Part shown: one piece after another, positions 16,633-61,183 of the stretch | Numbering within the stretch: the stretch's first letter is position 1 | Layout of the letters: the number at the start of each line of letters is the position of its first letter | Assembly: GCF_055900595.2 (NCBI RefSeq) | Contig: NZ_CM148325.1 | DNA length: 64,000 bases | Strand: one strand, 5' to 3' | Made by a program: the position numbers and the translations under genes | Notes under the pieces: generated by a model | Database searches by the model: none | Told to the model about the DNA's origin: nothing | Seen by the model: the letters and a program-made list of their open reading frames with translations, nothing else

Positions 16633-17466
16633 ATGGAACTCATTGAAAAACATGCCAGCTTTGGCGGCTGGCAAAATGTGTATCGGCATTATTCCCAATT
16701 ACTGAAATGTGAAATGAATGTCGGCGTCTATCTCCCACTAAAAGCCGGGAATGAAAAATTGCCGGTACTGTACTGGCTTTCGGGCCTGACCTGTAACGAG
16801 CAGAATTTCATTACTAAATCGGGGATGCAACGTTACGCGGCTGAGCACAACATTATTGTTGTTGCGCCAGACACCAGTCCGCGAGGCAGTCATGTCGCAG
16901 ATGCCGACCGTTATGATCTCGGGCAAGGTGCCGGGTTTTACCTGAACGCAACGCAAGCGCCGTGGAATGAACATTACAAAATGTATGATTATATCCACAA
17001 CGAGCTGCCGGATTTAGTGATGCAACATTTTCCGGCAACGGAAAGAAAGTCAATCGCGGGTCATTCAATGGGCGGCCTGGGCGCGCTGGTGCTGGCGTTA
17101 CGTAACCCAGATGAATATGTCAGCGTCTCGGCATTTTCGCCCATTGTCTCCCCATCGCAAGTACCGTGGGGACAGCAAGCCTTTGCCGCGTATCTTGGTG
17201 AAAATAAAGAAACCTGGATGGATTACGATCCGGTGAGCCTTATTTCACAAGGTCAACGCGTTGCGGAAATCATGGTTGATCAAGGATTGAGTGATGATTT
17301 TTACGCAGAACAGCTGCGGACTCCAAATCTTGAAAAGATCTGCCAGGAGATGAATATCAAAACGTTAATCCGTTATCACGAGGGTTATGATCACAGCTAT
17401 TATTTTGTCTCCAGTTTTATTGGCGAGCATATTGCCTACCACGCCAATAAACTGAATATGCGTTGA
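16633..17466 (+). CDS. frmB: S-formylglutathione hydrolase (esterase)
   Basis: 277 aa with GHSMGG serine-hydrolase motif. Confidence 0.92.
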   Translation: MELIEKHASFGGWQNVYRHYSQLLKCEMNVGVYLPLKAGNEKLPVLYWLSGLTCNEQNFITKSGMQRYAAEHNIIVVAPDTSPRGSHVADADRYDLGQGAGFYLNATQAPWNEHYKMYDYIHNELPDLVMQHFPATERKSIAGHSMGGLGALVLALRNPDEYVSVSAFSPIVSPSQVPWGQQAFAAYLGENKETWMDYDPVSLISQGQRVAEIMVDQGLSDDFYAEQLRTPNLEKICQEMNIKTLIRYHEGYDHSYYFVSSFIGEHIAYHANKLNMR

Positions 17467-17467
17467 G

Positions 17468-17785
17468 CATCCGCGCACGCCAGCCGGATGCGGCGTGAAC
17501 GCCTTATCCGCCTACATTTCGCCCATAAACCGTAGGCATGATAAGACGCGCATAGCGTCGCATCAGGCATCTGCGCACAGCTGCCGGATGCGGCGTGAAC
17601 GCCTTATCCGCCTACATTTCGCCCATAAACCGTAGGCATGATAAGACGCGCATAGCGTCGCATCAGGCATCTGCGCACAACTGCCGGATGCGGCGTGAAC
17701 GCCTTATCCGGCCTACATTTCGCCCATGAGCCGTAGGCATGATAAGACGCGTCAGCGTCGCATCAGGCATCTGTGCACGGCTTAT
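17468..17785. repeat. BIME cluster: three tandem ~102-bp units of REP palindromes
   Basis: Unit GCCGGATGCGGCGTGAACGCCTTATCCG...GCATCAGGCATCTGCGCAC repeated three times with point differences. Confidence 0.85.
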
Positions 17786-17791
17786 CGATGA

Positions 17792-18432: not shown

Positions 18433-19644
18433 TCAGGCATCGGCGCACGGCTGCATTCGTGATTTTCGACTCATCAAAATAAACACCGCTAATCCAGCAA
18501 CAAGAATACCCGGCGCAGATGCGGCCATTACGCCAACCGTGCCAGTGCCTAATGCCAGCATTTTCCCTGCCAGCAACGGGCCGCTCATGGCACCCAGACG
18601 CCCAATCGCCACGGCGGTTCCCACGCCGGTTGCGCGGATCTGCGAACTGTAAAACAACGGAGCCAATGCATACAAAACGCTTTGCCCACCTGTTGCAAAC
18701 AACCCTGCGACGAATCCCGCCAGCAACATACCGTTAAATGATGACACTGTTCCCAGCGCTAACAGCGAAGCTAACATACCGCTATAAATCAGTAGCGACA
18801 TGGTCATTGGACGCAGTTTATCCATCAGTGCGCCCAATATTAACGTCCCGCTTGCCGCCCCCATTTGTAGTGCAAACATCACCCCTGCCGCCTGCGATGG
18901 CTGGAATCCTTGTTCCACTAAAAGCAGCGGTAGCCAGTTGATCAACATGTAGACCACCAGCAAAGTGAAGAAATAACACAACCACAGCAGCAGCGTTGCG
19001 GTTGCCGTGTCGGGCGCAAATAACGCACGCAGCGGCGGCGCAGCCTGTTTTTCGCCAGCGAACACCATCGACTCCGGCAGCCAGCGCATTAACAGCGGCA
19101 CCAGAATCAACGGCACCACACCACCTACCCAAAACACCGTTTGCCAGGCTAAGTTTGCCCCCGCGAAACCCAGTGTCGCCGCCAGCGCCGCGCCAATGGG
19201 AACACCGCAATACATCAGGCTCACTGCCCTCCCACGAAAACGTGGACCCGCGGCTTCAGACGTCAGGGCGATAAGATTCGGCAACGCCGCCCCCAGCCCG
19301 ACACCGGTCATCAGCCGCGCAAAGACCAGTGAGGGGAAATCCCAGGCAATCGCCGTTGCCAGTGAGAACAAACCAAACAGCGCAACTGAGCCAATCAAAA
19401 TGCGCTTGCGACCATAACGGTCCGCCAGCATTCCACCAACCAACGCGCCGGGTAGCAAACCGAGTATTCCGGCGCTGAATATCCAACCCATTTGCATTTT
19501 ATCGAGTGCAAAAGCCTGGGCGATGCCACCCGCCGCAATGCCAGCCGCCTGAAGATCCAGTCCTTCCATCAGAGCGACCAAAAAACAAAGCCCGATGGTC
19601 AGCATCAGGCGGGATGAAGATGATGAAGGGGTACGAGTCGACAT
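18433..19644 (-). CDS. mhpT: 3-hydroxyphenylpropionate MFS transporter
   Basis: ORF 18433-19713; start set at MSTRTPSSSSSRLMLT... giving 403 aa; 12-TM MFS. Confidence 0.88.
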   Translation of the reverse strand: MSTRTPSSSSSRLMLTIGLCFLVALMEGLDLQAAGIAAGGIAQAFALDKMQMGWIFSAGILGLLPGALVGGMLADRYGRKRILIGSVALFGLFSLATAIAWDFPSLVFARLMTGVGLGAALPNLIALTSEAAGPRFRGRAVSLMYCGVPIGAALAATLGFAGANLAWQTVFWVGGVVPLILVPLLMRWLPESMVFAGEKQAAPPLRALFAPDTATATLLLWLCYFFTLLVVYMLINWLPLLLVEQGFQPSQAAGVMFALQMGAASGTLILGALMDKLRPMTMSLLIYSGMLASLLALGTVSSFNGMLLAGFVAGLFATGGQSVLYALAPLFYSSQIRATGVGTAVAIGRLGAMSGPLLAGKMLALGTGTVGVMAASAPGILVAGLAVFILMSRKSRMQPCADA

Positions 19645-19724
19645 AAGATGAACCTCGTTGCGAATGCAGGTGAATCGCGGCTGATACATTGCCAGCCGCG
19701 TAATCAAAACCATTTAATGACTGC

Positions 19725-19818
<94 letters not shown>

Positions 19819-34644: not shown

Positions 34645-34675
34645 GTCGGATGCGGCGCGAGCGCCTTATCCGACC
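34645..34675. repeat. REP element between lacY and lacA
   Basis: GTCGGATGCGGCGCGAGCGCCTTATCCGAC palindrome. Confidence 0.7.
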
Positions 34676-34700
34676 AACATATCAGGACGGAATGATCAAA

Positions 34701-49004: not shown

Positions 49005-49036
49005 GCCGAATCCAGCGCGAACGCCTTATCCGGCAT
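49005..49036. repeat. REP element between prpR and yahO
   Basis: GCCGAATCCAGCGCGAACGCCTTATCCGGCAT. Confidence 0.7.
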
Positions 49037-49098
49037 AAATTTCAATAGATGATCACCGATAAACTTACGCATCGGGCATGTTTACATGGGGTGCAGAA

Positions 49099-59800: not shown

Positions 59801-60751
59801 TTACGTTTTAATAATATGGGTGCCCGTCTCGCCACGCAGCGCCGCGGGCAGGCATTCCGGCGTGGTGATAATCACTTCTTTGCCGCCCTGTTCTAAAAAT
59901 GTCAGGCTGGCGATGATTTTTGGCAACATGCTGCCAGGCGGGAAATGCCCTTCCTGCATATAGCGGGTCATGGTGGCAATATCCACCCGATCCAGCGCCT
60001 GCTGCTGCGGTTTGCCAAAATGAATACAGACTTTTTCCACGCCGGTGGTGATCACCAGAATGTCGGCGTGAATTTCGCGGGCCAGCAGCGCGGTGGAGAG
60101 ATCTTTGTCGATAACCGCGTCCACGCTTTGGTAATCTCCCGCGTCAGTACGCACCACCGGAATTCCGCCACCGCCCGCACCAATCACCACAAACCCTTGT
60201 TGGATCAGCGCTTTAATGGCAGGTGCTTCAACAATACGTTTCGGTTCCGGCGAGGCGACCACGCGGCGATAGCCGCGTCCGGCATCTTCAACAAAACGCC
60301 AGTCAGGGTTTGCCTTTTGTAATTCGTTACGCTGGCTTTCACTGAAGAATGCGCCAATGGGCTTGGTGGGGTGAGCAAACCCCGGATCGTTTTTATCCAC
60401 TTCCACCTGAGTCACCACAGTGACGGCTTTTTTCTCGCCGTGGCGCGCCAGCCGATTGTTCAGCGCCTGTTGGATCAAGTAGCCAATGCCGCCTTGCGTA
60501 TCTGCCACACAGTTCGCCAGCGGCGTTAAGGGCAGCCCTTCGCGCTCGTGGGCAATCTCCGCACGGCGTAGATCCAGCCCAACCTGCGGCCCGTTGCCGT
60601 GGGTCAGCACAATGTCGTAATCGGAAGCCAGCATTTCCAGCACCGTCTCGGCGACGGCCTTCACCGCCTCCGCCTGATGCTCAATCGACTGGCTGGCGTT
60701 ATCTTTGATAATGCTGTTGCCACCAATGGCAACGACCACAAGTTCTTTCAT
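59801..60751 (-). CDS. yahI: Carbamate kinase-like protein
   Basis: 316 aa MKELVVVAIGGNSIIKDNASQS... amino-acid-kinase fold. Confidence 0.85.
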   Translation of the reverse strand: MKELVVVAIGGNSIIKDNASQSIEHQAEAVKAVAETVLEMLASDYDIVLTHGNGPQVGLDLRRAEIAHEREGLPLTPLANCVADTQGGIGYLIQQALNNRLARHGEKKAVTVVTQVEVDKNDPGFAHPTKPIGAFFSESQRNELQKANPDWRFVEDAGRGYRRVVASPEPKRIVEAPAIKALIQQGFVVIGAGGGGIPVVRTDAGDYQSVDAVIDKDLSTALLAREIHADILVITTGVEKVCIHFGKPQQQALDRVDIATMTRYMQEGHFPPGSMLPKIIASLTFLEQGGKEVIITTPECLPAALRGETGTHIIKT

Positions 60752-60801: not shown

Positions 60802-61160
60802 GCCTGATGCGCTACGCTTATCAGGCCTACAGATTCTTGTGCCATTCGTAGGCCGGATAAGGCGTCCACGCCGCATCCGGCAATGGTGACAAATGCCTGA
60901 TGCGCTACGCTTATCAGGCCTACAGATTCTCGCGCCACTCGTAGGCCGGATAAGGCGTTCACGCCACAACCGGCAATGGTGACAAATGCCTGATGCGCTA
61001 CGCTTATCAGGCCTACAGATTCTTGCGCCACTCGTAGGCTGGATAAGGCGTTCACGCCGCATCCGGCAATCGTGACAAATGCCTGATGCGCTACGCTTAT
61101 CAGGCCTACAGATTCTTGCGCCACTCGTAGGCCGGATAAGGCGTTCACGCCGCATCCGGC
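60802..61160. repeat. BIME cluster: four tandem ~92-bp units
   Basis: Unit GCCTGATGCGCTACGCTTATCAGGCCTACAGATTCTTGCGCCACTCGTAGGCCGGATAAGGCGTTCACGCCGCATCCGGCAA repeated four times; track ORFs 60748-61263 and 60783-61205 run through it. Confidence 0.88.
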
Positions 61161-61183
61161 AGAGACAACGCGCACTTTGCAGG

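Follow-up and report, generated by a model that had tools for sequence, protein, structure and literature searches.

A three-unit BIME-2 array of variable unit number between the convergent genes frmB and yaiL of Escherichia coli

The window analyzed here is a 64,000-nucleotide stretch of contig NZ_CM148325.1 (NCBI RefSeq assembly GCF_055900595.2). Within it, a tandem repeat occupies the space between two convergent genes, frmB on the plus strand and yaiL on the minus strand. A preliminary description, made from the letters of the sequence, had given the genes these names, and RefSeq annotation of the matching E. coli loci agrees: fghA/frmB encodes S-formylglutathione hydrolase and yaiL a DUF2058 protein, the yaiL coding sequence ending at the same place in the annotated genomes. 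frmB is the last gene of frmRAB, which is induced by formaldehyde, and the array lies in the 3' region common to frmB and yaiL. Tandem Repeats Finder places it at 17467–17782 (period 100, 3.2 copies, 93% matches, no indels, score 539), and only one other array in the 64-kb window reaches a score of at least 80. A repeat search finds in-register copies at 17467–17566, 17567–17666, and 17667–17766. Unit periods are 100, 100, and 101 bp, the third unit being longer because of one extra G (CCGGCCTAC versus CCGCCTAC), and a partial fourth unit of 16 nt closes the array at 17782. The array begins at the very next base after the frmB open reading frame (16633–17466, plus strand, translation end ...HANKLNMR and stop), and repeat homology ends 9 nt short of the yaiL stop codon; with both of its ends between the two stop codons, the array is entirely extragenic. 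This periodicity bears out the three tandem units of the preliminary description, as well as their placement against the frmB stop and just short of the yaiL stop. The unit length of about 102 bp given there is corrected to the measured 100–101 bp, and the limits (17468 and 17785) move by one to three bases at each end. The K-12 RefSeq record carries no repeat feature at the frmB-yaiL locus.

What is the array made of? Each unit combines a Y-type REP with a Z2-type REP in inverse orientation, for a total of three Y and three Z2 elements and thus six hairpins (Table 1), spaced by linkers of 16 nt where the REPs stand head to head and 13 nt where they stand tail to tail. The six REPs measure 33–38 nt, and each has a GTAGG/CCTAC foot and an internal mismatch. 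Folded singly, on either strand, they have free energies of −14.5 to −21.3 kcal/mol. The first Z2-type REP carries the variant GTAGGCATGAT, which produces one stem mismatch. The left flank and the start of the first Y REP can also pair with each other, forming a hairpin at 17467–17491 (−13.7 kcal/mol) directly after the frmB stop. Relative to shuffled sequence, the fold of the whole array has z-scores of −8.2 (plus strand) and −8.9 (minus strand). The global minimum-free-energy folds turn the entire array into one long hairpin, and with the pairing span held to 50 nt or less the lowest-energy fold joins neighboring REP arms across the linkers, and in the window allele it contains the hairpin at 17467–17491; both are thermodynamic alternatives and not evidence of structure in vivo.

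Table 1. Features of the frmB-yaiL array and its surroundings, in window coordinates; energies are for single REPs on the two strands.
Feature	Position	Strand	Basis or remark
yaiL-sense 3' ends of K-12, window equivalent	17305–17307	−	160–162 nt inside antisense frmB; exact sequence match
frmB (fghA) stop codon TGA	17464–17466	+	ORF 16633–17466; array adjoins directly
Left flank, GCATCCGCGCACGCCA	17467–17482		Resembles internal tail-to-tail linker plus last bases of a Z2 REP
Y-type REP no. 1, 1-nt stem deletion (CCGCCTAC)	17483–17515	− (GTAG foot)	Regular expression and folding, −14.5/−15.3 kcal/mol
Head-to-head linker, 16 nt, ATTTCGCCCATAAACC	17516–17531		
Z2-type REP no. 1	17532–17569	+ (GTAG foot)	−15.2/−14.7 kcal/mol; aligned to Z2 half of Rfam naRNA4 model
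Tail-to-tail linker, 13 nt, TCTGCGCACAGCT	17570–17582		
Y-type REP no. 2, identical to no. 1	17583–17615	−	In 100-bp unit absent from closest relatives; naRNA4 hit 17535–17613
Head-to-head linker, 16 nt	17616–17631		
Z2-type REP no. 2	17632–17669	+	Regular expression and folding
Tail-to-tail linker, 13 nt, TCTGCGCACAACT	17670–17682		
Y-type REP no. 3, full canonical stem (CCGGCCTAC), most stable hairpin	17683–17716	−	−21.3/−19.5 kcal/mol; naRNA4 hit 17635–17713
Head-to-head linker, 16 nt, ATTTCGCCCATGAGCC	17717–17732		
Z2-type REP no. 3, last hairpin for frmB-sense RNA	17733–17769	+	Regular expression and folding
Right flank, TCTGTGCACGGCT, linker-like partial fourth unit	17770–17782		
yaiL stop codon TAA	17792–17794	−	ORF list; same CDS end in annotated genomes

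REPs and BIMEs form the commonest family of intergenic palindromic repeats in E. coli and have been described since 1984. A REP is defined as an imperfect palindrome of 30–40 nt with a conserved GTAG beside the foot of the stem and a mismatch within the stem (PMC3333891). Two classes of paired REPs are distinguished: BIME-1, a single pair of Y and Z1 with a long linker that binds IHF, and BIME-2, in which Y and Z2 occur in tandem copies with short linkers (Ton-Hoang et al., PMC3333891). Named motifs (S; s, l or r) are used to classify the linkers of BIME-2 elements. Judged by its sequence, we assign the frmB-yaiL array, with its six REP palindromes in alternating orientation and short linkers, to BIME-2, because it combines tandem copies of Y and Z2 with short linkers and contains no IHF consensus; a search of 17467–17791 for the consensus WATCAANNNNTTR returned no match. 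The alternating inverted Y and Z2 REPs also justify the label of BIME array in the preliminary description. Membership in BIME-1 or RIP is ruled out by the 13–16-nt linkers, the Z2 form, the tandem arrangement, and the missing IHF consensus. Like the array, BIME-1, RIP, and RIB elements place inverted REPs in pairs at transcription-unit 3' ends, but they join Y to Z1 across a long L linker in single copy, whereas Y and Z2 here alternate in tandem across short linkers. The inverted REP doublets, GTAG foot, and stem mismatch of the REPIN and RAYT (TnpA-REP) repeats are present in the window array as well, and TnpA-REP binding requires both the GTAG and the stem mismatch (PMC3333891). The Y-REP 17-mer occurs eight times in the window against 0.01 expected, and a query containing the array finds a median of at least 30 matching places per E. 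coli genome. The frmB-yaiL array is an ordinary member of a long-known kind of element.

REP325 of K-12, at yjdM-yjdN, consists of alternating Y and Z2 units and is the source of naRNA4 (PMC4550694); the same description as a Y/Z2 array is given by Harris (2026, bioRxiv 10.64898/2026.03.23.713779). Window units agree with those of REP325 (naRNA1-6) at 34 of 35 positions in Y and 36 of 38 in Z2, and the two arrays have in common a 100-bp period, short linkers, and a position in a 3' UTR. They differ in size (six units and 12 hairpins in REP325, three units and six hairpins here), in linker sequence, the linkers here matching neither the l linker nor the spacer of REP325, and in setting, since REP325 lies inside a tandem operon and the present array between convergent genes. 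Unlike those of REP325, the Z2 copies in the window have lost one stem pair to a C-to-A change. The Rfam model of naRNA4 (RF02564, gathering score 59.5) matches the minus strand of the array at 17635–17713 (75.8 bits) and 17535–17613 (66.8 bits).

Could the array then be a source of naRNA4-like nucleoid-associated RNAs that condense the chromosome together with HU? By analogy with REP325, from which the model was built (PMC4550694), the two yaiL-sense matches that exceed the gathering score would speak for such a role. The alignment reveals, however, that the model is simply the Y REP, l linker, and Z2 REP of REP325; it recognizes any Y-linker-Z2 pair, and four more hits occur elsewhere in the window. 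In addition, REP325 and naRNA4 had no measurable effect on nucleoid compaction (Harris 2026, bioRxiv 10.64898/2026.03.23.713779). We regard a nucleoid function of the array as extremely improbable.

Does the array end transcripts from both sides? Term-seq and bicyclomycin (BCM) data in the supplements of Adams et al. (2021, PMC7815308) bear on this question for K-12 MG1655, which carries a two-unit allele and is not the window strain. Three reported Term-seq flanking sequences match the K-12 record exactly, and the positions were then mapped to the window. At 377325(−), K-12 has a strong frmB-sense 3' end (100,650 reads on average in LB at OD600 2.0; PMC7815308), which corresponds to window position 17778, 9 nt past the last Z2 hairpin. 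On the other strand, yaiL-sense 3' ends at 377694/377696(+) were recorded in LB at OD600 0.4 and 2.0 with read counts of about 1,400–1,550, and the bicyclomycin experiment placed the peak of a Rho termination region at 378012(+) (Rho score 5.8, p = 1.7e-10; PMC7815308), which lies 478 nt inside frmB, at about 16989 in the window. K-12 Term-seq contains no curated yaiL-sense 3' end in or at the array (PMC7815308), a weak negative because reads from REPs may be lost to multi-mapping filters. A consensus scan of 17467–17791 on both strands detected no hairpin-plus-U-tract terminator. Downstream of the array the C/G ratio is mildly above 1 in both directions, a value that does not decide on a Rho loading site. 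Taken together, the lack of an intrinsic terminator and the positions of the K-12 ends suggest that the array marks and protects RNA ends and does not behave as a symmetric terminator. The bidirectional transcript end of the preliminary description, set against the published 3'-end mapping in K-12, thus survives in the frmB direction, where a strong end sits at the array edge, and finds no support in the yaiL direction, where the ends lie 160–162 nt beyond the array, in frmB.

In K-12, yaiL-sense antisense transcription covers the 3' part of frmB (window about 16989–17307, minus strand) and ends at the Rho-dependent region. Such transcription across frmB could interfere with frmRAB expression. 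The abundant end at 377325(−) was obtained in LB at OD600 2.0 without formaldehyde and may represent a stable decay fragment.

Beyond the observed anatomy, family membership, hairpin stability on both strands, copy-number variation, and lack of an intrinsic terminator, we think it probable that the array is a 3'-end hairpin stabilizer and partial attenuator that acts unequally in the two directions. In the frmB direction, the transcribed array would fold into a row of stable hairpins without RNA polymerase being halted there by a canonical terminator; RNA running past the array would be terminated farther on, in part at least through Rho, and then trimmed by 3'-to-5' exonucleases as far as the outermost hairpin, which would leave the frmB-sense RNA with a protected 3' terminus about 9 nt beyond the last Z2 REP. 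Trimming by 3' exonucleases to a stable hairpin would be expected to leave the frmB-sense end at the array's outer edge, where K-12 has it. In the yaiL direction, the array would be leaky: RNA would enter antisense frmB, where Rho would terminate it. Changes among one, two, and three units would come about through slippage or unequal recombination involving the 100-bp repeats, or possibly through RAYT/TnpA-REP activity. REPs have been hypothesized to shield Rho-terminated RNAs from exonucleases, and trimming has been shown more generally for Rho-terminated RNAs (PMC6061677). REP325 acts both as an mRNA stabilizer and as a partial, length-dependent, Rho-dependent attenuator, although two to four of its hairpins are insufficient for Rho dependence; against the stabilizer reading, the half-lives of REP-terminal mRNAs are not longer genome-wide (Harris 2026, bioRxiv 10.64898/2026.03.23.713779). 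In the supplement of the same study, yaiL appears as a differential-expression row.

How do other explanations compare with a directional stabilizer and attenuator? A symmetric bidirectional terminator of the frmRAB and yaiL transcripts would be in keeping with the strong 3' end of frmB-sense RNA that K-12 shows at the edge of the array, with the presence of REPs between about 30% of convergent gene pairs, and with the 78 REPs found in 306 sequence-identified bidirectional terminators, nearly 40% of the REPs between convergent genes (Harris 2026); convergent gene pairs with REPs are also more highly expressed (Harris 2026, bioRxiv 10.64898/2026.03.23.713779). We nevertheless consider it unlikely. 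Neither strand has a hairpin followed by a U-tract, yaiL-sense RNA of K-12 crosses the array to end 160 nt beyond it, with the Rho-dependent region 478 nt beyond, and REP325 with two to four hairpins shows no detectable Rho dependence (Harris 2026). The convergence of frmB and yaiL also fits a different function, in which the array would be a BIME-2 site for gyrase binding and cleavage that relieves positive supercoiling between frmRAB and yaiL. BIME-2 elements as a class are enriched for in vivo gyrase cleavage sites, mostly at Y REPs and independently of transcription, but only a subset of them contains such sites, and the frmB-yaiL locus was not found in the supplementary tables of the Topo-seq paper (PMC6379681). 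By this analogy with the class, a gyrase site at this locus has a low probability.

The closeness of the first hairpin to the frmB stop raises one more alternative, namely that the array would lower frmB translation by stalling the terminating ribosome, with mRNA cleavage and tmRNA tagging as the consequence. Liang, Rudd, and Deutscher reportedly described in 2015 that a REP close to a stop codon has this effect, through ribosome stalling followed by mRNA cleavage and tmRNA tagging. The rule for translation-regulating REPs attributed to Liang et al. (2015), as quoted in PMC12306157, is a hairpin less than 16 nt after the stop codon. The Y REP of K-12, which begins 13 nt after the TGA, falls within this distance, and the alternative hairpin of the window (17467–17491, −13.7 kcal/mol) begins right after the stop. 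The canonical Y REP of the window, by contrast, begins 16 nt after the stop, with its first paired base at 18 nt, and thus lies just outside the rule. An effect on frmB translation, drawn by analogy from these other REPs, is in our estimation quite unlikely.

Strain-to-strain variation in copy number is a known property of BIME-2 elements (PMC3333891). Over 12 kb around the array, the window is 99.8–99.9% identical to the eight closest complete E. coli genomes, and all eight are exactly 100 bp shorter. From this comparison of sequences, the third unit appears to be a recent gain specific to the window strain, although it could in principle be an assembly error. Removing the second unit from the window gives the nearest two-unit allele, that of strain E200086. 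For a population sample, the query consisted of the two flanks only, and genomes were taken evenly down the ranking; among the 58 sampled genomes, all with both flanks intact, 33 have one unit, 24 have two, one has three, and none has zero or four. An earlier sample had given 20 genomes with one unit, 16 with two, and two with three. In the strains compared, intergenic lengths fall into three groups: 124–125 bp (E. coli C, O157:H7, ES1), 223–226 bp (K-12, NRG 857C, E200086), and 323–326 bp (the window, EC42405, 2020CK-00188, AH21). The AH21 allele is K-12-like with its first unit doubled, and in EC42405 the second unit is doubled. Because different units are duplicated in different three-unit alleles, these alleles must have arisen independently.

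The array of K-12 MG1655 is orthologous to that of the window, with the flanks, the Y/Z2 organization, and the right boundary in common. K-12 has two units in a 223-bp intergenic region, in contrast to three in the window, and its Z2 copies carry the canonical GGCCTGAT in place of the window's variant. The left boundary also differs, reading TGA-TAATAGCACGACT in K-12 and TGA-GCATCCGCGCACGCCA in the window. Across strains, the 13–16 nt from the frmB stop to the first REP exist in at least three unrelated versions: GCATCCGCGCACGCCA, TCATCTGCGCACAGCT, and TAATAG(TG)CACGACT, the last being that of K-12, E. coli C, and O157. GCATCCGCGCACGCCA and TCATCTGCGCACAGCT resemble the internal linker as if copied from it, a sign that recombination may have occurred at the edge of the array. 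In strain ES1, the frmB stop codon is TAA and not TGA. The strain-specific third unit and this variable boundary beside the frmB stop are the only points in which the array is locally distinctive.

An insertion is found at the locus in E. coli PEC199 (NZ_CM168016.1; 2000–3503 of the locus compared), where IS621, an IS110-like element, interrupts the first Z2 REP immediately behind its GTAG foot; the two-unit array is otherwise intact. REPs are known targets of IS621. In the genome named E. coli SCPM-O-B-8794, a GTDB representative whose FrmB is 94% identical to that of the window, the site holds a one-unit BIME with a head-to-head linker of about 7 nt and other sequence beside the yaiL stop. 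A scan with the conserved yaiL 3' end, one genome per species, returned at least 120 loci; among the loci listed, frmB stands beside yaiL with a BIME only at the E. coli locus, E. coli being the one Escherichia species in the sample.

Is the array kept for a function at all? There is about an even chance, in our estimate, that it is a selfish or neutral repeat whose persistence and changing size are due to recombination, slippage, or the RAYT (TnpA-REP) nuclease, any effect on RNA ends being incidental. The spread from one to three units among strains, the independent origin of three-unit alleles, the difference of one unit from closest relatives that are 99.8–99.9% identical, the boundary sequences that differ between alleles, and the IS621 copy inside the PEC199 array all point in this direction; strain-variable BIME-2 copy number is known, and TnpA-REP cleaves BIMEs in vitro (PMC3333891). 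The variable unit number and boundary, together with a tolerated IS621 insertion, fit little or no selected local function. Yet none of the 58 sampled genomes, all with both flanks intact, lacks a unit, the divergent E. coli-named genome with a 94% identical FrmB also has one at the site, and in K-12 the element measurably affects RNA 3' ends at the molecular level. The selfish or neutral reading and the hairpin-stabilizer explanation are compatible with each other. A look-up of frmB and yaiL in the supplements of Ton-Hoang (2012) and of Dar and Sorek (2018) found nothing.

At the opposite extreme, the unit number might be a natural expression dial, each Y/Z2 pair raising both hairpin protection and Rho-dependent attenuation, with the repeated three-unit expansions selected and not products of drift. 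We strongly doubt this; if it were true, the third unit would measurably alter frmRAB mRNA stability, read-through into antisense yaiL, or yaiL-driven antisense transcription across frmB. The locus could offer a natural allelic series of one, two, and three units plus an IS621-interrupted allele, with which the proposal that hairpin number tunes 3'-UTR stability and read-through (Harris 2026) could be tested. The general significance of the array is small, as REP/BIME elements occur in about 30% of E. coli convergent intergenic regions (Harris 2026) and differences in BIME-2 copy number among strains have been documented (PMC3333891).

The window contains further REP sites. A second tandem REP array lies at 60802–61161 (period 93, 3.9 copies, 95% identity), between minus-strand open reading frames at 59801–60751 and 61184–62602. 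Besides Y REPs it contains a shorter form of Z (GCCTGATGCGCTACGCTTATCAGGCCTAC), probably Z1, in which case the array would count as an "atypical" BIME, and it gives three Rfam naRNA4 hits of 70–75.8 bits on the plus strand. The best naRNA4 hit of the window (78.1 bits) belongs to a single Y-linker-Z2 BIME at 19737–19816 on the plus strand, just past the start-codon end of the minus-strand mhpT open reading frame (18433–19713). Two degenerate Y-REP matches, with two mismatches each, are found on the minus strand at 34662–34678 and 49022–49038.
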